From assembly GCA_000697335.1 (NCBI GenBank), contig JNEM01006243.1, forward strand, positions 1 through 48,602: 48,602 nt of DNA. Reading direction: 5' to 3'. The stretch is from Conidiobolus incongruus B7586 (lineage: Eukaryota). The notes below the pieces were generated by a model. It was given only the letters and a program-made list of their open reading frames with translations. It ran no database searches and was not told the DNA's origin. Positions 172 to 31,695 of this stretch are shown piece after piece. The translations under genes were made by a program, and so were the position numbers. Position 1 is the stretch's first letter. Every line of letters begins with the position of its first letter.

Positions 172-1314
172 ATAAGATATAATCCAAAGGAAAACTTGAA
201 TTAATAATTATATAACAAATTTGGAATATTAATCATTTTATAGATATTTTGAATATATTAGTCGATATGGATAATTTAATTAATTTATATTATAAATGAT
301 ATATTTACATAGTTTAATATTAATTAATATAGTTAAAAATTTTAGAAAAAAATAATTATTAATAATAAAATAGAAGAATATATTGATATAATAAAAGTAA
401 AAAAAAGGAGCATATTTATGGGTGAAATTAATGATATCTATAATTGAAATAACTTTACTAATATAAATTAATTGATTATTTAAAGTCTGATATTAAATAT
501 AAAGTTATATAAGAAGTTTTATAATAATTTTTCAATAAAATAAAAATAATATAAAAACAATTTATTATTTATTTAATTAAAACTCATTTGACAATTTAGT
601 AGCCTTATACAATATAACTCTCTTTTGAGGTTTATTTAATATAAACCCTATTTTTATTAAATTAGATATAATTCATTATAAAATAATAATTTCATTCTTT
701 AATTTTTAAAACATCAATTAAAATATTTATAGCTAAAAGTAAATAATATTAATTTTTTACTGTTTAAAAAAATAAAAAATAGTTGAATTATTTATACTTA
801 ATATTATATATTACTTTATCTATATTAATTTATACTATATTTAAATTTTAAATTCTTTGAGTTATCTTTGATATTAAAATTAAAATTTTTTGAAACTTTT
901 AAAAATTGTATTTATAAATTATTTGTTGAATATTTTGAAAGAATATTGTTTTTGACTACCAGAGCCTAAGGTTAACTCATATATATTTAGACTTAAGAGC
1001 TTATTTAATAAAGGAAGAGAATACCTTTGGTGTATGGTAGTTATTTATATAAGCATTATATAAGCAAAATATAAAATAATTAAGGATATTTACATATAAA
1101 CTTGGATTAAAAAAACTTTCAAATGTCTTTAGTATTATATGGGGACAAATCAAAATATCAATGCTACTAGAATATATTTTTTATTATCTGATATTTAGTT
1201 CATTCAGTCTTACAAGGTTGGTGTAGGGGCTTACTCCAACGGTGTCTCTGGACTCCATGCTGGATTTGGATGAGGGCGATCAAATTGATTAACTTGGTCA
1301 AGTTTAACTATAAG
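172..1314 (+). mobile_element. Degenerate Fanzor2/TnpB (IS607/IS200-605-derived) element relic, copy 1
   Basis: + strand reads N-K-G-R-E-Y-L-W-C-M-V-V-I (from 1007), K-H-Y-I-S-K-I-*-N-N-*-G-Y-L-H (1051-1095), K-L-G, and K-T-F-K-C-L-*-Y-Y-M-G-T-N-Q-N-I-N-A-T-R (from 1112). Reverting mostly G>A/C>T changes gives NKxREYPWC..EHYTSKTCGNCGYLH.KLG..KTFKCPQC....DRDINAAR, the TnpB/Fanzor Zn-ribbon + RuvC-III signature. Weak N-terminal remnant IRYNPK...FG at 172-225. The left boundary is uncertain and may lie outside the window. Confidence 0.8.
1200..1314 (+). ncRNA. Candidate omegaRNA scaffold / transposon right end of Fanzor relic 1
   Basis: GC-richer non-coding segment directly after the RuvC-III remnant, homologous to 21525-21640. 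Hairpins GTTGG..GTA../..TAC..CCAAC (1217-1240) and AACTTG-GT-CAAGTT (1291-1304). Confidence 0.5.
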
Positions 1315-4166: not shown

Positions 4167-4976
4167 ATGGAAAGTCATCAATTGAACGATACTGAATACT
4201 TGAGCGAACAACAAATGCAATGGTTCAATAGATTGTCAATGGATATGTGTAACAACGAATGCTTTCAAAGTGTTCTACCTGACTTCACTGCCATGAGCGG
4301 TAGTGCAAATTACTTTGATCCCTTCTTATTACAAACTCAATATCTTGCTGCACAAGGTTCTCCAGTGCTATTCCCTTATCAAAACAATATGTCAAGCGAA
4401 TTCCTCAACAGCCCAATCTCTCCTTCTGGAAATACACCCTGCTTTACAGATTATTCTTTCTCATCTCAATGGCCTCAATCTCCACTTTCTTCAAGCAGTT
4501 TTGAGCTTCCCATCTCTCAATTCCCTTGGGATCCTACAATGTCTCCCACCTTCCAACCCTCATACAGTGAAGTGAGCATGGATATGAGCTCAATGAACTC
4601 ACCCCCTATGATGTATTCAGATGCTCCTCTAACTAAAGTATCCACATATCCTTCGAATACTCGCAACCCTTCTCCACCTATAATTGGCCAATTCAATATC
4701 ATCTCCTCTGATTTATGCCCTCGTCCATACACATGTCAAGTTCCCAACTGCCACCGTAGCTTCAAACGCAGTGAACATCTCATTCGCCATCACCGCTGCG
4801 TGCACACCAACTTAAAGCCCTATAAATGTAAATACCCAAGTTGCAAAAAGACCTTCTCCAGATCCGACAACTTACACCAACACGAGCTCACTCATACGAC
4901 AAAATCTTCAAACAAGAAGAGTAAGAAGGAGATGGGTACTAAGGAAGGCTTTGACAAATTCTCCCTTACTGCCTAA
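4167..4976 (+). CDS. C2H2 zinc-finger transcription factor (two fingers, Ser/Pro-rich N-terminus)
   Basis: RPYTCQVPNCHRSFKRSEHLIRHHRCVH-TNLKPYKC-KYPSCKKTFSRSDNLHQHELTH. Single 269-aa ORF. Confidence 0.93.
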   Translation: MESHQLNDTEYLSEQQMQWFNRLSMDMCNNECFQSVLPDFTAMSGSANYFDPFLLQTQYLAAQGSPVLFPYQNNMSSEFLNSPISPSGNTPCFTDYSFSSQWPQSPLSSSSFELPISQFPWDPTMSPTFQPSYSEVSMDMSSMNSPPMMYSDAPLTKVSTYPSNTRNPSPPIIGQFNIISSDLCPRPYTCQVPNCHRSFKRSEHLIRHHRCVHTNLKPYKCKYPSCKKTFSRSDNLHQHELTHTTKSSNKKSKKEMGTKEGFDKFSLTA

Positions 4977-6966: not shown

Positions 6967-7038
6967 TCCGATATGGTCCAGTGGTTAGGATTTCTCGCTT
7001 TCACCGAGACGGCCAGGGTTCGATTCCCTGTATCGGAG
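6967..7038 (+). tRNA. tRNA-Glu(TTC)
   Basis: Acceptor stem TCCGATA/TATCGGA, anticodon arm TCTCG-CT-TTC-AC-CGAGA, T arm CAGGG-TTCGATT-CCCTG. 72 nt, with a T-run downstream. Confidence 0.96.
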
Positions 7039-10020: not shown

Positions 10021-11223
10021 ACATTTTTACTAGTATAGACAGTGCTAAACAATATTTTATTTTTAGTGTTATAGGTAATTGGATTATATAGTCGAAATTC
10101 AAAAATGATTATAATATTCGATATATTAGTATTATATTATTAAACTTTTTTATCAACTATATAATTTTTTAATATATATTTAAACTTTGAACAGTTACTA
10201 ATATTTTTATTATTCAATTTATAACTTATTAAAGTAAGAAAATGTATAATAATCATCATATTCCTTTTTTATTTGGTATCAAAATAAAATCCAAATATTT
10301 ATTAAAATACATAAAATACTTAATTATCAAGAGTAATGTGAAAGTTTTATATCTAACTCAATCGTTAATTACAATGGACTGTATAAATTGTAATATAATC
10401 ATTGTCCTATAATCATATTTCTAATATATCTTTGATTTATATAGTAATTAAAATATCAAGTGATAAATATATCTATTTCAATTCATACAATTATTTCAAG
10501 ATAATGCTATTGAAAGTTTTGCACCTATAAATGAGTGATAAAAATTGAAATAAAAGAGGTAATAGAATGCTGAAGTTAAACGACATTGTCAATGTTAATA
10601 TTTGATATATATACTTTTAATTCCGTTATATTAAATTCAAGATATTTGGATGGATTTGGATAGTTGAATCATTAAATTCCCAAATTATAAATTTTTTCAG
10701 ATATAAACTGTCAATAAACAAAAAATTAATATATTACATAATATTCATCACATTTTCAATATAATTTGTGAATCAGGTAATTACCTCAAGTCAACTGTCA
10801 CACATTTCTCTAATTCACTCAATTAACTTAGCTATTGATTATCTTTTCTTTATCATATTTTGTGATTTGACTCACCTGTTCCATGATAATTTATAAAATA
10901 TTTCTCTTCTTCATTACAGTATATAAGCAGTCTTTATCTTATCTCAATACAAGACATCTTTGATAATAAGAATAAACAAGTTGAAAATTATCGTTATCTA
11001 TCCTTATTAATCAAATTTCGTCAATAGCATTAGTAGAGATTCAAATCAGTCCTAATTGTATTTCACATAGCCAATTTTTCAAATATATTATTCAAGACAT
11101 TACATCAAACAAGCATAAATTATAAGATATTATAATAACTTTAGGGATTTATATTTATAAATATTAATAAAATAATAAAAGAATGGGAAATGAACAAATA
11201 ATGAAAATAAATAAAATAAACCA

Positions 11224-11295
11224 AGATCTGCCTGAGAACCGAACTCAGATCGCAGGATTCAAAGTCCTGAGTGCTAACCATTACACCAGCGGAGC
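11224..11295 (-). tRNA. tRNA-Gln(TTG), atypical or possible pseudo-tRNA
   Basis: Minus strand: GCTCCGC-TG-GTGTAATGGTTAGCAC-T-CAGGA-CT-TTG-AA-TCCTG-CGAT-CTGAG-TTCGGTT-CTCAG-GCAGATC-T. D, anticodon and T stems pair. The acceptor stem has two mismatches and the T loop has G at position 58. Confidence 0.85.
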
Positions 11296-12385
11296 TCTTA
11301 TCAAAAGTTATTTTACACATCTATTAATTGAAATTAGTCCCCTTTGATTCTGATTATTTCAATAATTAATTGTATAAATCATACAATATATAATATTGAT
11401 ACAATCTTCACAGTCATAATCCATCACTTGTATATATATCAAATAAATATATATTAAAATCTTAATTTTTTACTAATAAATTTAATATCACTTTTTTACT
11501 AGTATTCATTATATTTTATATTATTTACTTCTATAATTTCAATATTTTTCTCAATTTAATTGATTACTTATAATCATGGTCATAATTTTATACCTTAATT
11601 TTACTAAGACTCAACATATCAAAAATCTCAAATACAATCATATTCTTTACTTAGCTTTTTTTTCAAAAAATGTCGTTAATATCGGCTATTTATCTGATAA
11701 AATTCTCAAATTAACTAGTCAAATTAATTTATGACCTATGATAATTATTATTGGTATCATTTAATGATATTTAAAATCACTATATACTTAGAATTATGTA
11801 CTGATATCTAGATTTATAATTCTAATTTTAAAGAATATATTTACATATAAATAGTTTGCTATTAATTCCAAAACAATATTGACATATAATCATTACCTTT
11901 CCACTTCATATTATAAATGTTTTCAACTTTTTTATATGATAATTTGTTTCTCATAATATCAGAATTATGATCTTAATTCTTTAACTGATAACTATATTTA
12001 ACTTTATTTGATTTCTTAAACTCACGAGTATAAAATATAAAATATTAAAAATATTTTGACTATTATTTGTATATGAATCATTATTATTAAAATTAATATA
12101 ATCTTTAATATTCGATGACACATGTTAAAATTCTATAAATTTGATTCATTCAACTTTTAATTGTTTGCCCCTTGAAATCAACGTCACAATAATTCTAAAT
12201 TAAGCTGTAAGTTGATTTTAACGAAAAATGATTCATCAAAAATTAAAATAATTATTTAACTTTATTTAAAATGATATCATCAATTCAATATATTTATCCA
12301 TTCATTCTAATATATTCCTTAATTTTCAACCCTATTAGAAAAATTGTTAAACTATAATTATTGTACAACTTTCAATCGATATTAT

Positions 12386-15309: not shown

Positions 15310-18300
15310 TTACTGATTCCAGCCATGATCATTCCTACGTTTGACAGGAGACGTTGGAAAAGTGCGTCCCTTGCCAAAACTCCTATCAAAGCTCAAATCT
15401 TCTTGCATTGTAATATCACCATTCAACGTACCAGGATCTTTGAACACTGTATTGAAAGGATTCTTATTATGGTAATTCTGGTTTGGATTCTGCATAGTGT
15501 TATTCTTTCTAGGCCCAATCTTAGGTAATGGACGTCCCGTAGTTACCGGTTTAAACACTTCTGGAAGATGTTTCAAAGGTTGATTTTCATCTACAATACC
15601 TGATTTGTCAACCTCTTCCTCCAGCAGTTTATCATGTAATGTATCCCATTGTACTTGGTTGAATTTGTCAAATTCTTCAATAACTGGAGAAACAAAATTT
15701 TCCAAATCTTTGCTCAGTTGCATATCGAGAGTGTGCTCGTTCAACGTCTCTTCCGATCCTGATGATGGTGGTGGGGTTTTTGACTGTAATTTCTCCAAAT
15801 TGTCCACGATATTCTTCTGCATGTTGAGATAGTCCTCCATCCTAGATTGGATCAGACGGTTCTGCTCCTAGATCGTTTTGGCTTTTTGCGCTTCTTTCAT
15901 AGCTTGGCGTTTGCTACGTTTAATCAGTGTCAATTCGTGCCACTCGGCCCATTTGCGAAATGGAATGCTTTCTGGTCCTTGATTATGCAAGTTCTTGTCC
16001 CCGTGACCGCCTTCTCCGTGACCTGTATCGGGACCGTCAATCTTTCTGGTAGCTCCCCAGTTAAAATCGTCGAATCGCCAGAATGCGTACGCTGGTAAGA
16101 CTAAATTCCAGATAGGGAGTGCTAGAATGAACACTCCCATCCACATGACATATGACGCTTTCTTGGTAGTTGTCAGGATGAGAACAGCTTGGAGTAAATA
16201 GGCGCCCGCCATCATTTCCAATGGCAGCAATACATCCTGACCCATAAAAGCAGCAATAATGAGATAAATGGTAAAGCACATACTTGCAGATAGCACTACA
16301 GTACCAATTAATTCCAACAGAATGACAAATTGCATTGAACAACAGAAAATACCACACAATTCAGGAACAAGTACTAATTCCAGCAGATTGTGAATGGTGG
16401 AACTGATCCATCGACGTCTTTGGGATAGCAATACGCTAAATTCGTCTGGAACTACGATTTTACATATAGCTCTAGGCACGTAAATCATTTTGCGATTGGG
16501 AAAAGTTCGCATCATTAGAGTAGTTAGGTAGCGGTCTTCACCCAACAGTAACAAATTCTTCTTATGTAATGTACTTACGTCGTTTGATGAATAATTGGTA
16601 ACAATATCTGGATTTGCTAAAACTGGGACATTGTAACCATCTTTGTTCTGAGCTTTAACGCGATACATACAGGAGGAACCCGAAAGACGTGCGACACCGC
16701 CGAAGATCGATTCGAAAGCTTTACCCAAATGATGACTGATATAGTATTGGTACACTTGTATTCGAGTCACCCAGGTATCTCGCTTGTTAGTTATTTGCGT
16801 CTCGCCGCACAAGCCCATAACTAATGGATCGCCCCCCATAGCAGCTACCATGATACCCAAAGCATCTGGCAATACTCTCCTATCGGCATCCACCATTAAT
16901 TCCAATTCATATCTGTCAGGTGCGACTCCCACTAGTTGACGCACCTTTTGGAAAATATCTTAATGCAGGGGGCTCATTGGTTCGTTAAAGCAAATAACTG
17001 CCAACCAATGCATCAAAATGAATTTAAGTCTCGTTTACCTTGATTACCAGCCTTGAGCTGCATTCTCTCATAAGGTAATCCATATTTGATAATTTTATAT
17101 ATAATACTCTGTGATCCAAAATATTATCTCTATGTGTACTTGAGCCAAATTGTGTTTTCAAGATCATCTCCAATTGCAATGTATGACTTTCGCTTTGGAG
17201 CTGGTACCCTCAGGTTAAAAGATTCCATAAGGTTGTGAAGGATTTGAGGTGTACTCTTTTCATTAGCCGATCCCGTAATATTGCCATCAACAATGACGAA
17301 TAATAGCTTGTGCATATCGTCATAATTGGACAATACTAAACTATTCAAGATATCCTTAACCGATTCCAACCATTCGAAATAACATGTAACTAATAACAAA
17401 ACGTGGCTCAACATATTTTTATCCCTCTTTTTACTATTAATCTTTCCTAACTTCCAACTCAAGAACCAATCGAAAGCCACAGGTGCCAAAAATTTTATGT
17501 GAGTCATAGTCAACAATATCATAGTGCTGCAAATCATAGCTATATTAGCAATAAAGCAACCGGTGGTAGTTCTATCCAATTTACCGACAACCAACTGCTT
17601 GTCAAAGCACAACACCAATTTTATGAGTGCGTAATTCCTTAAAACGTCCTTGGTAGCATCTTTCCCTATAAAACTTTGGAAGATCGGGTCCCACCCTTTG
17701 AAGTAGTGTTCTTCGTCCTTATCGCTGAAATATTCAGTGAGACTATACTTCTTGTCATTATACACGAAATACTTTGTATTTTGATCCCATGGAGACGTGA
17801 TGTTCTGCCAACTGTATACGACATAATCGTTCATTGCCAAATTCTTGAGCGTGGTCCAGCACTGTGTACTGATGTGACTACAGTTTTGTATCGTTGCCTA
17901 TCTTTTCCAGTTTTTTGCACGGATTTTTCTTGTTGTCCTCAGGCCAGAATTCGCACGTTGAGCCGCCCGAATCTGGGGGGAAGAAGTGTGAAATGCCGTG
18001 GCCGTATAATGTTTGGATAATTTCGTCTAAATCTTCGTCCTGAAGGGGTAGGATTGGATGATGGCCGCCCAATGGGAAGTACAGTCCCACATCGTATAAC
18101 TGACCTCGTATTATCATCAGTTTTTGGCCGCTGGATCGTGATCCGTGATCTCTGGCAACCCAGTCTACGAAGATTGGTATCTTTTTCTTACAAATTAAGC
18201 TAGCGAACCCAAATGTCAAGAAGCCCAGCATTGCCGAAATCAGGGCAATAATCACGCACAATGCCACCTTTTCACGCCAGGCTTGCTGAATTTTGGGATC

Positions 18301-20365
18301 TGTTAAATTGCCGAATTTTTTAAGGGCCCAGCTGAAGCAGCAGGCGTCACTACTTGCGAAAACAATTCCCATCGGGATTGAGGATTCAGTCCGAAGTGAT
18401 ACCATTTGTGCTTGTCGTCGATAGGTTTGCTCAAGTTGCTGAATTGAGCGGGTTGGTTCCCTTGGATAGCACCATTGCCTGAAAATGGGTCAATTGAGCT
18501 ATTGATGGATCCCTTTCAAGCTTTTCTTGCTCTCAGAGTATTCTGTCTATTTAAAGTAGAAGTGTACGACGGTACTTTAAGATCGGACAAATCCTCCGTC
18601 TTTTCAATTAACGGCTCCTCCAAACTGATATCGGCAAAATCATCCATAGTATTTTGTTTCTCCCAATTATCTGGCAAGGGACAAGGATAGGGATCGGTAC
18701 TACCCAAATCGTTGGGCATCGAAGGTTGTTTCTTGGAGCAAAGTTCTGTAAGATGATAAGCTGGTGTGGGCATTTGCAAACTATTCAAATCTGGGAATTG
18801 TTGTCCACGACTCAATTGTTTTTAATGACTTCTTTTGTATGCTCTATCTCCTATCTGCAAGATTTGAATCACTTTGGCGTGATCATCTTGCTTCACTAAA
18901 CTCAGTGCAGTTTGCGCTTGTTTGATTGTGGCATTTGGATATGCTCTAGCTTGTAATAGTAAATCAACGACATCTACATGGCCTGAAAATGATCCTATCA
19001 TCAGAGATGTCCAATCGTGAATGTCGGCAATATTGATACCTGCTCGAAAATCCAATAGTAATTTTACTGTTTTACTATGCCCTTGGAATGAAGCTATCAA
19101 GAGAACAGTCTTTCAGGTGTGATCCTTAAAATCCAGATAAGTTTGCATGAATGTACCGGTTGTAGTTTGAGGACTTGGAGACTGCGTCTGATAGTTAATC
19201 AATAGCCTCCGACATATTTCAGTATGACCTCCAGATGCAGCAGCCATTAATTGAGTTTGCAACAGTTTTGTAGCAACAAAAGGATCTACCTTATAGTACA
19301 ACATACGATCTACCTGGTCCAAAGAACCTCTCAAATAAGACTTATACAACGGAGTCTCGTCCGCCGCATCCTGATTATTCACATCAATCCCGCTCAAACT
19401 TAGAACCCAATTCAATATAGAAATTGGGAGAGCAGGATCCATACAACATCTCTGCAGCAGTGTAAAGCCTTGACTGTCGCAATACACATTCAAATCCATA
19501 TCCTTCCTGCAATAAACCCTCTGCAAGCCGTTGAGATCGTGCGCCTCTAAATGGTAAAACAATTGACTCACCAAATCTTTCGCATTCGTTTCCACGGGCG
19601 ATTCGGGATCATCGATTATATCCTGTAATGGATTATCTTCATCGTCATTGTAGTATACCGGACTTTTCGTATATTCCGGAGGGTCGAAAGCATCCATGAC
19701 TTTAGCCAAACTTTGGTCCAATATATCCACAGATTTCGTTTTGAAAATATCCTCAGGTGGTGGTCTTAGACTCTTGCTCTTTTTCGATAGAGATGCCGAT
19801 CTTGGATGTAAGTCAGATTCACTTAATAGTCCTTTGGTGTACACCATTTCTGGATGGTCTAAATCTATTGAATAAAAAATTTAAATTAAATGATTATATA
19901 ATTACCTTGCTTGGGTCCATCATCCAACATGCTATCATCCTCAAAGTCCATAGCTGCCCTTATCTGGCTGGTACTCTCCAAGCTATACTTGGAAGTGGAC
20001 GGAATCGGCTCCAAAAGACTGATCTAAGGCCTTATCAACTCACTATTCTCTATCCCTGCGTCGTCATATCTCGGTGGTTGACCACCGAACGTGGTGGGAA
20101 ACTTGCTCGTACTCTGCGTCGGCCTCTCCAGCTAGCTGGGCACCTCCATAATCGGCTCCAATCCCCCACCAGCTGGCCTGAACATATTATCGTTAGGATC
20201 CTGCCCATTCGTCTTGGTTTCTTTCGGATCCGGCGTTGAGTGAGTATTGGGACCTGCATTACCGGTACAATCCTCCAAAAAGATCTCATCAGTCAAGCCT
20301 CGCATTGATTCTTCCTCCTGAATATAAAAAACATCCGAATTGTCAGGACTTGAAATACTAATCAA
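15310..20365 (-). pseudogene. Disrupted chitin synthase (division 2, class IV/Chs3-like, cytochrome-b5-like domain) with N-terminal ankyrin repeats
   Basis: Colinear fragments: ankyrin repeats (19847-18822), QQAWREKVALC plus b5-like IRGQLYDV (18405-17878), VTCYFE..DGNITGS..STP (17840-17130), decayed GNxGKRD (~17050), MVDAD, LGEDRYLT and SQRRRW (16944-15868), then a C-terminal tail (15840-15310). Fragments are separated by in-frame stops and several frameshifts. The 5' boundary is uncertain. Confidence 0.9.
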
Positions 20366-21029: not shown

Positions 21030-21640
21030 ATATTAAATCAAGGTTTATATAAATTATCATTTGAAATATAAATATTTGGATATTATTTTACAAATATAAT
21101 TTTATTTCAATATATATAGTATTTAACATATTATGATCATTTTTAATATATTTTTCAAAATATCATTTTTATTTTTGCCTACAAAATAACATAATAAATT
21201 GAAATATTATTAATCAATCTTAGATATTAGGATAAATTTAGGAAAGTTAAAATAATATAAACTCTAGGTAATATCAAGTTTATTCAGTTTATGATATTAA
21301 ATGGCCTTTTTATTGATTTAAGAAAGCATATCAAATAAACCAAAAGATTACATTAAGTTTAAGGTAACAATTTATAACAGATTCTATATAAATAAAATAT
21401 ACAATAATTATATATATATAATTTAAATCAAGAAAAACTTTCAAATGTCCTTAATGTCATGTAATGATAAACAAAATTATCAATATTTCTAGAATCATAT
21501 CCTTTTGTTATATAATAGCCAATTAAATCAGGTTTCCAAGAGGATTATCAGAGCTTACCCACTTGGGGTCTTTGGACTCTATGCAGGATTTGGACAAGGA
21601 AAATCATAATTGATCAACTTTGGACAAGTTTGATTATAAG
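21030..21640 (+). mobile_element. Degenerate Fanzor2/TnpB element relic, copy 2
   Basis: W-P-F-Y-*-F-K (from 21302; cf. WSHYRFK), N-K-P-K-D-Y..K-V-T-I-Y-N-R-F-Y-I-N-K-I-Y-N-N-Y (21334-21411; cf. KVxICDE.YTSKTCGNC) and K-T-F-K-C-P-*-C-H-V-M-I-N-K-I-I-N-I-S-R (from 21434). Nucleotide homology with 1112-1314. Weak L-N-Q-G (cf. RuvC-I LDPG) at 21033-21044. Confidence 0.78.
21525..21640 (+). ncRNA. Candidate omegaRNA scaffold / right end of Fanzor relic 2
   Basis: Shares GCTTAC, GTCTyTGGACTCyATGCwGGATTTGGA, AATTGATyAACTT, CAAGTTT and TATAAG blocks with 1200-1314. Confidence 0.5.
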
Positions 21641-22599
21641 AATATAAATCCCAGTCAATCTTAATCCAATTATAAATAAACAAATTAATTATCAATGCTT
21701 TCATCGTCGCACGCACCTCAAAAAGTATTGAATTAGCAATTGTAAAAGAAATAATCAGACGCCGGGTAGAATGTTAGAATTCACTAAATCGGAACCATTA
21801 TTGGTTCAAATTGACAAAGATTAAGTCAAGCTAACTTTAAATTCGCTATTGCAGATATTACTAATAGTTAGATGAGTCAGAAGGAAGTGGATGTTGCTAC
21901 CAATTTGGGATATATCAATGGGATTGTTCAGGTTGCTAAGTATTTAATATACTTCAAATTGTGTGAATTGAATCACTTATAATTTATTAGTTTTAGACCA
22001 TATTGAAAATTTGACAAAGACTGATTGAAATAGCATCAAAAAATTATCCATGTTAATATTACATAAAAAGATCTCAATTAATCCCATTTTTTAGAGCTTT
22101 TAGCATCAGTTTATTTTCCTTGATTTGTTTGATTCAAAACACTTTTTCACACCTCATATTGGATAATGACAATATCATTTTCATTAGACTAGGTACTGCT
22201 ACTAGCACCTGCCAAGGATGCAGCTTTTTTTGCTTATCCAAAACCATTCTTGATATAATAAGTGATTTATTTGCTATGGAACATCCCAGTCTCTACACTT
22301 TATCACCTAGTCCCAGTATGATGGATATTGAGATGCAAACCAATATTAGAGAGATAGATAATGACTGAATATTTTATCTAAATCCACAGAGAGTTAACTT
22401 TTTATTAGGCTCCAGTATCATCTAAGCTCAAATGTAAAAATGATTCCAAGATCTTAAGAGTGGTAATAAATTGTTATATCCCAATGTTCCTGAGATCACT
22501 GAAGTTTAAACAATCATGATCTTCTTTCCAGCAAATTCCAATTATAGATTTATCAATTGAGATATTTAATTATTATAAATTTAAAATCAGAGGAAATTT

Positions 22600-25120
22600 T
22601 AGTTTTAGATTTTTATATTATTACCTTATATTTAAAGTAATGAGAAATTTTTTAATTTCTGATTTTTCAAACATATTATTAGTTTAAAATAAATAAATAT
22701 ATACAAAGTTAATAAGAAATTATATATTTTAAATATATATATATATAATAATTTTTTTGGTTAAAAAATTAACCTTTTAAAATTGGTTGTTTAATTTAAT
22801 TATACTTAAACTAAATAATAATTATCAAAAGTTTTTTATTTTAGTATTAGTATAATTTAACTATAAGCCTTTTAAAATTATTTATAATTTACAAGCAACT
22901 TTTAATAATAAAGTATTATTTAAATTAACAATTTATTACTAAGTAAATTATTTTAAGGTTAAAAGAAAAACTATTTAAAACTTGTTAAAATTTAAAAAAT
23001 TAACTTTAACTGTTATTTTTTTAATTATTAATAAAATGAAAAAATATATTAAAAAGTATTTTTTTATTTTAGTTAAAAAATTATTTAAGTATTTTAATAT
23101 TAGTTTTATAAGTATTTTATATATAATAAAGTTTAAACTCAAATTAATAAATAAAAATATAATATAAATACTTTATAATTTAATTAAAGCTTAAAAAAAA
23201 GTTAAATATTATTATTAAATAAAACTTATTAAAATATTATTAAAAGCTTAAACTTTTATAATAAATAATTATAATTAATAAATCTTAAATTTATATATAT
23301 ATTTTTTTATTAAAATATAAATTAAAATACTAAATTAAGTTAAATTAACCCCTTTTATAAATTTTTTTAAATAAGTATTTTATTAATAAATAAATGTTAA
23401 TTATTATAATAAATTATAATAGTATATACTACTTTTATTTAATTTTTAAAGGAAAATTAATTAATAATAAACTTTATATTGTTTTTTAAATAAAAGTATT
23501 TTTAATTAGTATTTTTATTATAATTTAAGAAAACTTATTATTTTATATCATTATTACAAAATATATAAATCTAAAACTATAAAAAACTTTCTAATTAAAA
23601 ATAATTAGAAAAAACTACCATATCTAATAACCTCTTTAAATTATAGCTTATATAATTATAATTGTTTTAAATAATTAAAAAACTAACTTATAAGAAAAAA
23701 AATTTTATAAAAAAATTTAATTAGTTTGTAAAATATTAAATTTCAATTTTTAATAAAAAAAATTATTTTTTAAGTATTTAATCTGTGTTAAAAGTATAAC
23801 AAAAAGTTATTAATAATAAAAGAAACTATTAAATTTATATTATATATTAATTTTAATCACAAAAAATTCCTATTATTAAAAATATAAAGTAATAATATTA
23901 TATTATTTTGAATCTCACTTAACAAATTTAACTATTTATTTAATTAATTTTACAATTCAAATAAAAATTATTTATAAAAAAATATTTAGTTAGGTAAAAA
24001 AATAAATATTAAAAAATTTTCTATATTAGTGTATATAACTATATATATTTAATAAAACATATAATATTAATGTTATTTGAATACTTATGACCTTTTTATT
24101 TATTATTATTATTAATACTACTCAATCATTATAGTTGAAATAAATTAAAATACTTAAAAATATATTTTATAAATTTAAAATAATTTTTAGTGATTGAAAT
24201 TTTACAAAAATTATATATTGATTTATTTACTAGATTTTTATTTTCTCCATATATTATTATATCAAATAAAGTTTTTAATCAAAGCAATATCAATTAGTTT
24301 ATATATTATTACTTTGAAAATTATATTAAATAAAACTAATATAAATTTATATTTATTGATCTAAATTATTATATCAAAAATTATCTGTGTCTAGTTTGCT
24401 TATTTTTGGTATTTTATCAAAAACATAGCTATATATAATTGCTTTGACTCCCCACTCATATTCAGCTTAGAAATTCAGCTACTTATAATAATAATTATCA
24501 GTTAATTTGATTAAAATAAAATTTCAATCACTTTAATTATTATATCTAATTATTTTTTATTTTAAATTCAAGTTCAATTCATAAAATAAAAGATTTAAGT
24601 TTTTACCTTGTAATATAATTAAATATAATTGATTACATTCATTGATAAAGCTTTCATTATTTTAAAATTGGTATAATATAATTGAATAAATATTTGAACT
24701 ATATATTATTTAATTCTGAATAATAATAATATACTTTTATAATTAATAAAGCTTTATTTTATTAAATATTTCAAAATTTATATGTAAATTATTAATAAGA
24801 AATTCTTTCACTTCTATTGAGTGTATTATATAATGTATTTCAGAACAGATATGACTTTAATATTTGATTAATAAGGTTAAAGAATAAAAGAGTTTTAAAT
24901 TCAAATACATTTTGTTCTATAAATTAGTATTTATCTCAGTCTAAATATTTTTTATTATTATGATATTTCAGAATTTCATTTGATTCAATTGTGAATAATT
25001 TTGTAAGCTGAATTAATAAAATAATACTTAATATTTCATCAATTAAAACATAAAATTACTTTTATTATGTCTTTAATATATACTATTGATAAAATTTAAT
25101 ATTTCTTGTTAATCATTTTT
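22600..25120. other. Extremely AT-rich, deamination-scarred (RIP-like) region, probably a decayed repeat
   Basis: No CpG seen by eye between 21846 and 25120. In ~22800-23800 the surviving C/G sit mostly in ACT/AGT/AGCT contexts, with few CA/TG. Confidence 0.6.
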
Positions 25121-29488: not shown

Positions 29489-29779
29489 TTAATAACCTTC
29501 ATAACCATATCCACTGTTACCATAATTTTCATAACTGTCATAATAGTCTCCATCGTAGTGAACATCTCCATAATCGTTATAATGATTATCGTCATAGTGG
29601 CCATCCCACCTATCCAAATGAATTGGCCTTTTACTGCCTCCAGCTTTAAATTCAGCGTTTAACTTAGAAATATCATAACCCTGAGTTGCCGCGACCTGGT
29701 TGTTGTAAGAATAACTAACTGGGCTTGAGTAGATAGTGCCAATCAAAGTCAAAATAACGGTAGGCAAAATAGATAGCAT
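29489..29779 (-). CDS. Small secreted Tyr/Gly/Asp-rich protein
   Basis: Signal-peptide-like MLSILPTVILTLIGTIYS-SP, a KR dibasic site, and a low-complexity Y/G/D/N/H-rich C-terminus. GC is elevated relative to the flanks. Confidence 0.75.
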   Translation of the reverse strand: MLSILPTVILTLIGTIYSSPVSYSYNNQVAATQGYDISKLNAEFKAGGSKRPIHLDRWDGHYDDNHYNDYGDVHYDGDYYDSYENYGNSGYGYEGY

Positions 29780-31695
29780 TTTGTTTTGAATAATTTATCA
29801 CACAGTAATAATTAATAGAATTTTATAAAATTTAATAATTTTTTGATTGAATGAATGATTACTAACTGATGGTTATATATAAAGTTACAATGCAACTCAA
29901 GAAACTTGGATACCTCCTGATCCCACATTCTCCAAACTCACCCTAGTAATTATTACCCAAGTTAAGATTCAAATTGGGGCAATTGGTACCAATTCATGCA
30001 AATTGGAATTTCTGTTAATTTGATTTGCATTTGTTATAATTTCCCCATCTCAAATATTTCTATTGAATGTAAATTGGAGTATTGGCCATTATGATTTGAT
30101 ATTTGATGTTCTTAGGATTACTATTATTGTACGAATTGATATTTTGATAACGGTCAGACGGACCAATTAAATTGATTAGAACTCATTAACCTGATAACTG
30201 ACGTGGGGTAATTACATTGGTGTCTTCGTATTAAAGAACCCATAAAACTATCCTGAGAAGCAAAGAAACTTTGATACATTATATCATCATTTGTTAAAGA
30301 GGTTATCTTGAATATCTTTATCATGTGATTATTTTTTATTTGATTTAACTCTTATTATCTTCAACTATTAAGGTAATAATATTATTTGGTACTTATATGA
30401 TTTCATAGATCTACTTCGAAATTTGAAAGCTAAAAATATTGTCAAAGTACTTTATTCAATATCAGTGAAAAGATTTCGAAGTTAATTTTGGATATTCTGA
30501 TATTAATTGAAACTAACGGAAAATTGAAACATAAAAATTTAACTGTAGTAATAGTGAGTGATAAATAATTTTGAATTTATATGAATTAATTATTTAAATA
30601 TTATTTAATAATTATAATAAAAATTAAAACTATTACATAAATTTATATTTTTTGGACTATATTAAAATTTTTGAAGTACACTATATAATAAGAAATTTAC
30701 TCATTTGATTGGTAATACTGGAATCTGATGATTTATTTAATAATTTTTCTATTCCTAAATAATCAAAAAAAATAATTTTGTTCAAATTTGAATTAGTCAA
30801 TTTATTAATTTAATTCGATAATTAATTGGAAAATTAAAACCACAATTTTGATGCTAAACACTTATATAATATTAAAATGTTAAAAATAGATATTGATTTT
30901 TGTTCAAAATGTGACTAAAATCGTTAGATAATAGGGTATATTAAAGTGATAATGAAAAATAAGCTCAAAATATGAATTTTAAGAAAAATTCTAACTTTAT
31001 CAGAATTATATTAATATTAAATAACGAAATTGATTTGATATATCCAATCCATATAATCATTTCATATTCTAGATAATTACAATAGTAATATATTTAATCA
31101 ATACTTCCTATTGTGAAATTAAAGTTTAAAGTAAAATATACTTTATTGTTCGATTTTATAATAAATAATATCTTATTGAAAGTAATGTATTTCATTTTGA
31201 AATGAAATATATTAAGCAAATAGATTTCAATATTTGAATTATTTTTATAATGCATATAATTAACATTTTATATTTTTGAAATCAAATTTTGTCCAATAAT
31301 TTGGATTAAAATTATTTTAAATGAAATTGTATCATTATACTAAATACTATTGTTATCAAAAACTAATAATATGTTTATAATGAAATTATATATAATAACC
31401 CAACAAGGGTGAGTATTTTATGATTAAATAATAAATCAATCAAAGGATATATTATAATGAATAATGTGAGACTACAACCTAAATCGATATATACATATCA
31501 CAATTCAATTCAGCATAATATTTGAATTAATTGGGAAATTTATTATCCCTTATAAAATTATCCCATGAATATGAAATTTGAATTAAAATTAATATAAAAC
31601 GAATGATTACATAGTCCATTTAATTATTACAACTATTAACTTCATTTAAAATTTATTGATTATTGATATTTGATAATTATAAAATACTATAAATT

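Follow-up and report, generated by a model that had tools for sequence, protein, structure and literature searches.

Two copies of a decayed repeat

The window, which is the whole 48,602-nt stretch of DNA analyzed here, belongs to an AT-rich fungal genome and carries a repeat of ~330 bases in two copies, both decayed. Copy A lies at 990–1323 and copy B at 21315–21647, both on the forward strand, and they share 70.5% identity over 342 columns (E 1.7e-33; BLASTN of 950–1340 against the window). No third copy was detected in the window: the remaining BLASTN matches were AT-rich noise of at most 46 columns, and an nhmmer profile of the repeat unit (E ≤ 10) retrieved copies A and B besides two junk rows (E 2 and E 7.6). 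Genes elsewhere in the window include chitin synthase, MKT1, TOM13, and DUF3712, the basis for its fungal origin. Each copy consists of the 3′ end of a decayed open reading frame (ORF) followed by a tail of ~115 bases. The ORF part of copy A (990–1198) spans ~69 codons, is interrupted by several stops, shifts frame at least once, and is 69% identical to 21315–21526 in copy B; three in-frame stops are common to both copies. The tail occupies 1199–1314 in copy A (116 nt after the stop) and 21527–21640 in copy B.

Both boundaries of the repeat were evident from the alignment. On the left, homology starts at the same internal point in both copies, only ~69 codons 5′ of the stop, and the DNA upstream of it (13%–25% G+C) is unrelated between them. 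On the right, similarity stops at 1314–1323 in copy A and 21640–21647 in copy B, at most 10 bases past TATAAG, and the flanks beyond ~1323 and ~21647 are mutually unrelated. The preliminary description of this DNA had reported that ~110 nt of tail were conserved with 21525–21640 and that similarity faded after TATAAG, and the alignment agrees on both points; the motifs it quoted (GTCTyTGGACTCyATGCwGGATTTGGA and AATTGATyAAC..CAAGTTT..TATAAG) are present in the alignments of the two copies. The inverted repeat of the right end had seven upstream matches with at most three mismatches (7.3 expected). A loose-end consensus behind 1069 was set aside at an agreement of only 0.62. Depth holes at 968–991 and 1112–1135 are evidence of nothing.

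The ORF of copy A likely ended naturally at the TAG at 1196–1198. The identical codon is a stop in copy B (TAA, 21524–21526) and in a 143-nt contig of the same genome (TAA) present at ~5.6x single-copy depth, so that a stop ~6 codons after the zinc-ribbon/RuvC-III-like motif described below is conserved in three lineages. Differences between the two tails are spread over the codon positions as 12, 11, and 10 (33 among 118 aligned positions). Because the in-frame stop is shared by both copies and the multi-copy contig, and the differences lack codon periodicity, the tail is non-coding, as had been proposed.

Conservation within the tail is uneven. The tail is richer in G+C (43% in copy A, 37% in copy B) than the ORF part (22% and 19%), which bears out the earlier observation of a G/C-rich tail behind an eroded coding part. 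The accompanying claim of better preservation holds for one portion of it: the last 71 bases, hereafter the core (1244–1314 in copy A, 21568–21640 in copy B), are 83% identical compared with 69% for the ORF part (p 0.02), with differences at 12 of 71 aligned positions plus 2 gaps. By contrast, the whole tail (72% vs 69%, Fisher p 0.61; 28% diverged) is not better kept, and its first 45 bases (1199–1243) are the worst-conserved stretch, at 56% identity. An edge effect of mutagenesis, suggested earlier as a cause of the better preservation, is not needed, since less decayed relatives show a tail that was G+C-rich from the start (47%–60% in 30-letter stretches).

The reading frame upstream of the tail

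Translation of 1112–1177 in copy A gives K-T-F-K-C-L-(stop)-Y-Y-M-G-T-N-Q-N-I-N-A-T-R-I-Y, which may be read, with moderate support, as an eroded form of R-x-F-x-C-x-x-C-G-x3-D-R-D-x-N-A-A-x-N-I, a motif that joins the second half of a TnpB zinc ribbon to RuvC-III. The counterpart in copy B (21434–21499) is K-T-F-K-C-P-(stop)-C-H-V-M-I-N-K-I-I-N-I-S-R-I-I. The motif was first chosen by eye. The substitutions that this reading requires (D>N, R>K/Q, A>T, and C>Y) correspond to G>A or C>T transitions, and in a comparison with a less decayed contig, 7 of 18 differences in 30 letters were C>T (our count). Across the six frames of the window, the pattern C..[CY].{4}[DN][RKQ]..N matched only at copies A and B (0.11 matches expected), and a decay-tolerant regular expression matched in the copy A stretch 1112..1177 only (0.005 expected).

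Profile–profile comparison placed the motif in register. Against a profile of 60 phage TnpB C-termini, hhalign aligned 22 columns of the two-copy profile in the canonical register s.R.w.C..CG..hDRDvNAA (P 2.8e-4, probability 41%), with a score of 25.9 that none of 200 column shuffles reached (maximum 20.9). In an earlier run, 1 of 120 shuffles had precisely the real score, a suspected though unproven artefact. Copy B alone scored 25.3 (P 2.2e-4), compared with a maximum of 19.6 for random 82-residue pieces of the window (n = 510), and the two other frames of copies A and B scored 9.3–10.4. Copy A alone yielded no score, and copy B supplies nearly all of the signal; the putative assignment to the TnpB family is therefore drawn from ~20 residues of one copy. 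Part of the score reflects generic zinc-ribbon likeness, since a designed C2H2 finger in the PDB is another, weak match of the TnpB profile.

Searches with curated models and large libraries returned no member of this family. With X in place of the stops in the read-through translations of both copies, Pfam and NCBIfam gave no family at E ≤ 10, and thus no match to OrfB_Zn_ribbon (PF07282) or TnpB; neither the copy B translation nor the two-copy profile matched the PDB at E ≤ 10 (phmmer/hmmsearch). Among 1.84 billion representative proteins, the two-copy profile matched two, both internally repetitive and neither of them TnpB, one being a CapR/treble-clef zinc-finger repeat. An HMM of the TnpB C-terminus that we constructed from 75 phage ORFs and ran on whole frames and 9,690 overlapping pieces ranked copy B as the third-best locus of the window at only 3.7 bits; copy A was absent from the best 400 of the 9,690 pieces, and the whole frames contained one unrelated domain only. 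A "G/C-restoring" two-copy consensus was dropped because it needed too many transversions and raised the score only to 4.2 bits.

The RuvC-I aspartate and RuvC-II glutamate of TnpB and Fanzor proteins lie 125–275 residues upstream. Neither RuvC-I nor RuvC-II was recoverable here, where the homology of the two copies covers only ~69 codons 5′ of the stop. The Bao and Jurka criterion, as worded in the relevant part of their paper, is a C4 zinc finger followed by RD/RuvC-III, [TS][TS]-x-x-[C4]-x(5,50)-RD (PMC3627910); a first CxxC with [TS][TS] can be read by eye only in another frame (1057–1083 and 21385–21411). Of the RuvC-III nuclease remnant named in the preliminary description, what stands is a motif-level profile match in the correct register, while Pfam, NCBIfam, and the PDB offer no match and copy A by itself contributes nothing. 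We infer the family of the ORF from profile evidence confined to that motif.

Fold and distribution of the tail

The two cores are predicted to fold alike, into a small hairpin and a long three-tier stem. In the long-stem structure 37 of 37 cells pair, and core changes fall less often in paired (3 of 38) than in unpaired columns (11 of 35, p 0.016). Thermodynamic stability gave no clear signal: whole-tail fold z-scores were −0.35 (copy A) and +0.32 (copy B), those of the cores were −0.57 and −2.50, and the two-copy alifold z-score of −1.66 and structure conservation index (SCI) of 0.66 were equalled by 43 and 98 of 500 shuffles, respectively. Between the two sequences, the long-stem model has 0 compensatory pairs and the hairpin model of the preliminary description has 1; the two models are mutually exclusive and fit equally well. 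The shared core architecture and the changes that avoid the stems agree with the description of the tail as structured, which the z-scores do not show to be beyond chance; the RNAalifold check suggested with it reveals no real covariation in the two copies.

Hairpins within the tail are short. The terminal one, AACTTGGTCAAGTT at 1291–1304 in copy A (AACTT-GGTC-AAGTT) and AACTTTGGACAAGTT at 21616–21630 in copy B, lies 10 bases 5′ of the end of similarity. It corresponds to the terminal inverted repeat reported earlier and is indeed present in both copies, but perfect 5-bp stems of this kind arose in 381 of 1000 shuffled tails for copy A and 426 of 1000 for copy B, so that neither is beyond chance alone. 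In copy A, the initial 45 bases of the tail (1199–1243), variable and rich in G+C, contain a GGGG-CTTA-CTCC hairpin that is broken in copy B. The best 5′ hairpins comprise 3–5 pairs (GUC....GAC and GGGG-CUUA-CUCC), with a 7-pair version containing one mismatch in just one other genomic copy, and copies A and B show no evident counterpart of the 7-bp SL1 of solved Fz1 omegaRNAs.

Further copies of the repeat came from DNA contigs of one sample (four contig sets), which may be the source of the window, and just 12–30 letters beyond each match were visible. At least five other contigs match 1244/1247–1283/1286 at ≥80% identity. Five of the six records in one contig set are other copies; all five match within 1205–1286 only, and their continuation still resembles AATTGATCAAC..GGTTCAATTATAAA. 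Within the visible letters, other copies are similar up to ..ATTATAAA. Contigs bearing the repeat had 2.2x and 5.6x single-copy depth. In the counterpart of 1199–1243, four other copies differ in sequence, one of them containing a perfect AGGGG-CTTA-CCCCT. The sole element kept in all four variants is the AACTT/ARGTT stem, which lies 10 bases from the end and whose loop varies; a stem change in one other copy produces U-G, which is tolerated in RNA and a mismatch in DNA.

Database searches with the tail retrieved no relatives. At Rfam gathering thresholds the tail was unmatched and only two tRNAs were reported, and E-value mode on 900–1450 gave three junk rows only (E 0.3–5.9). A metagenome scan with a 21-base core pattern found no relatives outside this genome: all 72 loci were unrelated, and none resembles the tail beyond the pattern itself (65 represent one conserved gene of bacteria with 53%–63% G+C, 4 a phage-/plasmid-like intergenic site, and 3 others).

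Interpretation of the tail

Judged from its sequence and position, the tail is probably, by a modest measure, the omegaRNA-bearing right end of a dead Fanzor-like element, and its core a candidate guide-RNA scaffold. On this reading it derives from a mobile element, now decayed, whose ORF likely had a TnpB/Fanzor-type zinc ribbon and RuvC-III at its end, and it forms the non-coding 3′ tail of that element. In an active ancestor, transcripts of the tail, chiefly of the final 71 bases, would have folded and served as the omegaRNA scaffold of the nuclease's guide RNA, with the guide portion read from flanking DNA past TATAAG. In TnpB and Fanzor systems the omegaRNA is bound by the nuclease and its transcript ends 14–21 nt past the scaffold. 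The arrangement here agrees with this reading in that the tail follows directly after the stop and reaches the end of homology, and in that the conserved core gives way to copy-specific flanks. The same 3′ layout is described for Fanzor and TnpB omegaRNAs (PMC10432273, in part), and the portions of PMC11423790 that treat Fz1 give omegaRNA lengths of 75–150 nt and, for Fanzor1, an order of seven-bp SL1, SL2, and guide. The earlier proposal of an omegaRNA scaffold is hence sustained by a position after a conserved stop, non-coding character, a sharp end, and a best-kept 3′ core, and weakened by an unclear stability signal and a nuclease family call that is not solid. Copies A and B themselves are most likely dead relics, given an ORF riddled with stops, tails that have diverged by 28%, and a disrupted upstream hairpin in copy B.

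Among known systems, SpuFz1 (Fanzor1) of the element Spu-1 in the fungus Spizellomyces punctatus resembles the repeat in carrying a short conserved non-coding region between the nuclease stop and the element 3′ end (75 nt there, 71 nt here), a region also kept in "ghost" loci that lack a working nuclease gene (Saito et al. 2023; PMC10432273, as far as its text on these loci goes). Spu-1 differs in its 30-nt terminal inverted repeat, none of which was found here. The SpuFz1, PpFz1, and GtFz1 omegaRNAs listed in Table S3 of PMC11423790 were compared with the core by eye only, and that of SpuFz1 showed no sequence likeness beyond a GGTTCAAT-like word. The remnant aligns to a TnpB-type C-terminus, and the 28 PDB matches of the phage TnpB profile list no chain named Fanzor1. 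They include ApmFz2 (PDB 9b0l, E 8.8e-26), a Fanzor2/IS607-type TnpB-like protein, from a group found in fungi and giant viruses, with the C-terminal R.W.C..CG..DRD.NAA signature of the TnpB/Fz2 kind and, as proposed here, a guide RNA at the 3′ end; its scaffold, however, is ~205 nt long, overlaps the ORF, and has a pseudoknot according to the section of PMC11832414 that describes it, compared with just 116 nt after the stop here. TnpB of IS200/IS605 (ISDra2 type) matches the putative zinc ribbon and RuvC-III motif in register, and has an omegaRNA at the 3′ end with a guide taken from the flank, again as proposed here; its hosts are bacteria and phages rather than eukaryotes, and the present ORF ends ~6 codons after the motif and lacks Rfam and Pfam matches. 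Some 20 residues are too few to separate the Fanzor1 from the Fanzor2 clade.

An alternative that we regard as unlikely, yet worth serious consideration, is that the tail is solely a DNA-level transposon right end, a subterminal hairpin and end sequence for a transposase or replication protein, with no guide RNA and the TnpB-like gene optional. The one element kept in all four variants is indeed a short stem 10 bases from the end, as in transposon ends. Helitron, Mariner, and other elements carry Fanzor1 genes, and the copies on Helitrons often have an intact 3′ end but a truncated 5′ end (PMC3627910, in its account of these elements), much as copies A and B share an internal start point and keep their 3′ end. 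However, canonical Helitrons terminate in CTRR with the hairpin 10–12 bases upstream, whereas the terminus here is TATAAG or TATAAA, no Rep/Hel remnant lies near either copy, and upstream matches to the end's inverted repeat did not exceed expectation. Conservation moreover spans all 71 bases, changes avoid the long stem, and the stem change to U-G suits RNA and not DNA. The two readings partly overlap, as known TnpB/Fanzor elements encode the omegaRNA in the very DNA that forms the transposon end.

It is improbable that the copies are an unrelated repeat or duplicated intergenic DNA in which the TnpB-like reading arose by chance from the Lys/Asn/Ile-rich translation of AT-rich DNA. The failure of curated models and library searches to recognize the ORF, the generic zinc ribbons among the library matches, the initial choice of the motif by eye, the silence of copy A, and the three shared in-frame stops all favor such a coincidence. 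Against it stand the profile match, which keeps precisely the canonical register and outscores 200 shuffles and 510 real pieces of the window, the restriction of the required substitutions to G>A and C>T together with the C>T share in the one less decayed comparison, and the stop conserved 6 codons past the motif in three lineages. The multi-copy state of the repeat, on contigs at 2.2x and 5.6x depth, is as expected of a mobile element rather than of a segmental duplication.

Present-day use of the tails finds still less room. It is highly improbable that the core persists in at least 10 genomic places because it is still used, as trans-loaded "ghost" guides that each target the DNA beside their own insertion, although such use would explain why the core stays 83%–90% alike while the ORF and the first 45 tail bases decay. 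That copies A and B in particular are still-working "ghost" guide-RNA genes that an intact nuclease encoded at another locus uses in trans is extremely improbable. Their core is kept better than the ORF and is the part common to at least five other contigs, and ghost omegaRNA loci are known in Spizellomyces punctatus (PMC10432273, in part). However, the cores of the two copies differ at the 12 positions and 2 gaps noted above, copy B has a disrupted upstream hairpin, copy A bears no stability signal (core z −0.57), and the two-copy profile found no intact nuclease in the protein library; nothing supports the retained function as an orphan guide RNA in trans that had been envisaged for them. 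Finally, a protein-coding tail, either a C-terminal extension or another exon, is hardly credible: in both copies one frame (952 in copy A, 21273 in copy B) stays open for ~40 codons across the tail and ends in or just past TATAAG, but it is not the motif frame, which stops at the codon shared by three lineages, its offset differs between the copies, the differences are spread evenly over codon positions, and an open run of 40 codons at 40%–45% G+C is not rare (~0.1, a rough estimate and not a computed value).

The omegaRNA-bearing right end is likely an ordinary relic of a known system and would leave the understanding of such systems unchanged, as 3′-end guide RNAs and gene-less "ghost" copies have been described since 2023. 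If the reading is correct, it would add one more fungal lineage in which the guide-RNA ends of dead Fanzor/TnpB-type elements are scattered through AT-rich intergenic DNA. Its practical value would lie in annotating these sequences as relics of a transposon, not as regulatory DNA of the host, and in providing a seed for a covariance model, and the 71-base candidate scaffold may serve as bait for intact members of the family in the full genome.

A two-copy repeat with a G+C-rich, non-coding tail

BLASTN of positions 950-1340 against the window paired a repeat copy at 990-1323 (copy A) with a second at 21315-21647 (copy B; 70.5% identity over 342 columns, E 1.7e-33), and reading and aligning both places confirmed the two conserved stretches of the preliminary description. 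The remaining matches were short AT-rich noise, and a profile search of the window found no third copy of the repeat unit. The described fading of similarity after TATAAG also held as a common 3′ boundary, with A/B likeness stopping at 1314-1323 and 21640-21647. The tail, i.e. the part 3′ of the ORF remnant (1199-1314 and 21527-21640), is richer in G/C than the eroded part, as described: G+C after 1198 is 43% for copy A, up from 22% in the preceding 209 bases, and 37% for copy B, up from 19%. Its reported better preservation applies to the last 71 bases only (the core; 1244-1314 in copy A, 21568-21640 in copy B), which are 83% identical (p 0.02 versus the part before the tail). The whole tail hardly differs from that part (72% vs 69%, p 0.61), and divergence is greatest over its first 45 bases (56% identity).

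The tail is non-coding. The frame carrying the nuclease-like motif stops at the identical codon in both copies (TAG 1196-1198, TAA 21524-21526), and again in the 30 printed letters of a 143-nt contig of the same genome at ~5.6x single-copy depth. The three codon positions receive 12, 11, and 10 of the 33 differences counted over 118 aligned positions of the tail, which argues against a protein-coding C-terminus; another frame stays open across both tails, out of phase with the motif frame and at an offset unequal between the copies.

The surrounding DNA is AT-rich (G+C 9-25% intergenic, 30-43% genic) and carries fungal-type genes for chitin synthase, an MKT1 C-terminal domain, TOM13, DUF3712, an ankyrin protein, and a C2H2 finger. 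The chitin synthase gene (15310-18489, minus strand; Chitin_synth_2 E 2.7e-149 plus a CHS4-like domain) is spread across at least four open frames and therefore has introns. Genes for tRNA-Glu(TTC) (6967-7038, plus strand) and tRNA-Gln(TTG) (11223-11296, minus strand) both lie in AT-rich intergenic DNA. AT-richness is extreme at 23001-25000 and 1-1000 (8.8%, 14.5%, and 12.8% G+C in 1-kb windows), and under loose BLAST settings these blocks align mutually at ~60% identity, although they are not truly homologous. A 41-base direct similarity (73%) between 4741-4781, in the C2H2-finger ORF region, and 29528-29568, by an opposite-strand ORF near 29489-29794, may reflect paralogous gene pieces or chance.

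The nuclease-like remnant

TnpB-type proteins end in R-x-F/W-x-C-x-x-C-G-x3-D-R-D-x-N-A-A-x-N-I. Read by eye, copy B gives R-K-T-F-K-C-P-*-C-H-V-M-I-N-K-I-I-N-I-S-R-I-I and copy A K-K-T-F-K-C-L-*-Y-Y-M-G-T-N-Q-N-I-N-A-T-R-I-Y, a stretch that looks like such an end decayed by G>A and C>T changes. Searches with the ORF remnants gave zero Pfam and NCBIfam matches at E<=10 and no PDB match, and screening 1.84 billion representative proteins with a profile returned two repetitive proteins only, one a zinc-ribbon repeat. Because these curated and library searches missed the motif, we made a directed TnpB test: a degenerate pattern of the motif drew 121 loci from a viral-contig collection, 75 with ORFs having at least 130 residues before the motif, of which 60 contributed their C-termini to an aligned profile that recovers TnpB, Fanzor2 (9b0l), and Cas12f/g/m chains in PDB.

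Using hhalign, the two-copy profile gave a single alignment to this TnpB profile in exactly the expected register (P 2.8e-4, probability 41%), pairing IKKTFKCLXYYMGTNQNINATR with s.R.w.C..CG..hDRDvNAA. None of 200 column shuffles reached the real score (maximum 20.9 vs 25.9); one of 120 in an earlier batch returned an identical score, attributed to an uncleared output file. Singly, copy B scored 25.3, copy A 8.0, and other frames 9.3-10.4; the top score among 510 random 82-residue pieces of the window was 19.6. The plain TnpB HMM was much weaker (copy B third-best locus, 3.7 bits; copy A outside the top 400). Two decay-tolerant regular expressions, both composed after the sequence had been seen, matched copy A only (0.005 expected) and, when loosened, only A and B (0.11 expected). 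A TnpB/Fanzor-type C-terminus is the best reading of the remnant, and a likely one, on ~20 residues, mostly of one copy, with a score that partly reflects generic zinc-ribbon likeness. Other defining nuclease motifs are unrecoverable because A/B homology starts only ~69 codons before the stop.

In another frame, copy B reads by eye Y-I-N-K-I-Y-N-N-Y (21385-21411, plus strand, frame 21274) and copy A Y-I-S-K-I-*-N-N-* (1057-1083, plus strand, frame 952). Both strings may be decay products of Y-T-S-K-x-C-x-x-C, which corresponds to the [TS][TS]-x-x-CxxC part of the TnpB/Fanzor signature; in that case, A and B would carry a common frameshift ahead of the second CxxC and stem from a copy that was itself dead. 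Three in-frame stops of copy A (1061-1063, 1097-1099, and 1130-1132) share their alignment columns (X38, X50, X61) with stops of copy B, reflecting either inheritance from a dead progenitor or Trp, Gln, or Arg codons that decayed in parallel by G>A/C>T changes.

Other copies in the genome

Four DNA contig sets, all from one sample, contain the stretch, and comparison at 80% likeness showed further copies in them. Over 1190-1330, run X2 returned six records, of which one is the locus itself (depth 28), two are 143-nt contigs (depth 157 and 63), and three are single-copy contigs (depth 26-31). None of the five foreign records matches outside 1205-1286, and four match solely from 1244/1247 to 1283/1286 with 4-7 differences. 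Their printed continuations past 1283 (..CTTTGATCAAGT(TTAATT)) and past 1286 (..TGATCAACTTTGAATAGGTTCAATTATAAA) are recognisably the same end, and the 30 letters preceding the core are strongly unlike among copies. Just before 1205 the high-depth contig is a less decayed version of copy A (12/21 identical over the last 21 positions), the differences being mostly C in the contig and T in copy A. The family is therefore multi-copy, with the window's copies as old, decayed members and the 71-base core as the part staying alike. The less decayed contig also indicates a tail G+C-rich from the outset, making the proposed mutational edge effect unnecessary. Three more contigs of this genome (3.4-3.8 kb) match 1015-1072, in the ORF remnant, at ~84% and are unlike on both sides beyond; they may contain members of the family that are longer and less decayed. 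The 21-base core word GGACTCNATGCNGGATTTGGA has 72 metagenome matches (L001-L072), 65 in one highly conserved soil-bacterial gene (53-63% G+C); these are coincidental, and the word alone is thus an unsafe probe.

Predicted core structure and comparison with omegaRNAs

Folding of the whole tails gave no sign of unusual stability for either strand (z -0.35, +0.32, -0.82, +0.47), and Rfam gave no match to the tail. The cores (71 and 73 nt; z -0.57 and -2.50) share one predicted architecture, GUC....GAC followed by a long stem pairing GGAUUUG with CAAGUUU, a middle tier, and an inner AUCA/UGAU tier. On the A/B alignment, 37/37 cells of this long-stem structure pair, with two one-sided and 0 compensatory changes. 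The terminal hairpins described earlier are present in both copies, each alone within ordinary chance (a 5-bp stem arises in ~40% of tail shuffles); extended, that model pairs 17/18 cells with one compensatory C-G/U-A pair. The two models need the same 3′ arm and are mutually exclusive. Changes avoid the paired columns of the long stem (3/38 vs 11/35 unpaired, p 0.016) and not those of the hairpin (3/18 vs 11/55). The alifold energy was mildly better than that of column shuffles (z -1.66, 43/500 as good; SCI 0.66). The comparison of two sequences, with 0-1 compensatory pairs, is suggestive at best of a conserved core structure.

Solved Fz1 omegaRNAs, the guide RNAs of these nucleases, are reported as 75-150 nt, a 7-bp SL1 and a variable SL2 preceding the guide (PMC11423790), and a Fanzor2 scaffold as ~205 nt with a pseudoknot (PMC11832414). 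Fanzor1 genes are described on Helitron, Mariner, and other elements, the Helitron-borne copies often 5′-truncated with intact 3′ ends (PMC3627910). Canonical Helitrons have a CTRR end, unlike the repeat here, and no terminal inverted repeat of an element end was found. In Spizellomyces punctatus, 134 gene-less 'ghost' loci retain the omegaRNA-bearing region (PMC10432273). That copies A and B act today as orphan guides is very improbable. The preliminary reading of the tail as an omegaRNA scaffold and element end is reasonable and only partly supported. The order of stop, 45 variable bases, conserved 71-base core, and unrelated flank fits the omegaRNA pattern. We consider it very likely that the tail is the non-coding right end of a decayed mobile element and likely that this element was of TnpB/Fanzor kind; overall, the balance tips slightly towards the tail, as a candidate, having encoded a guide-RNA scaffold.
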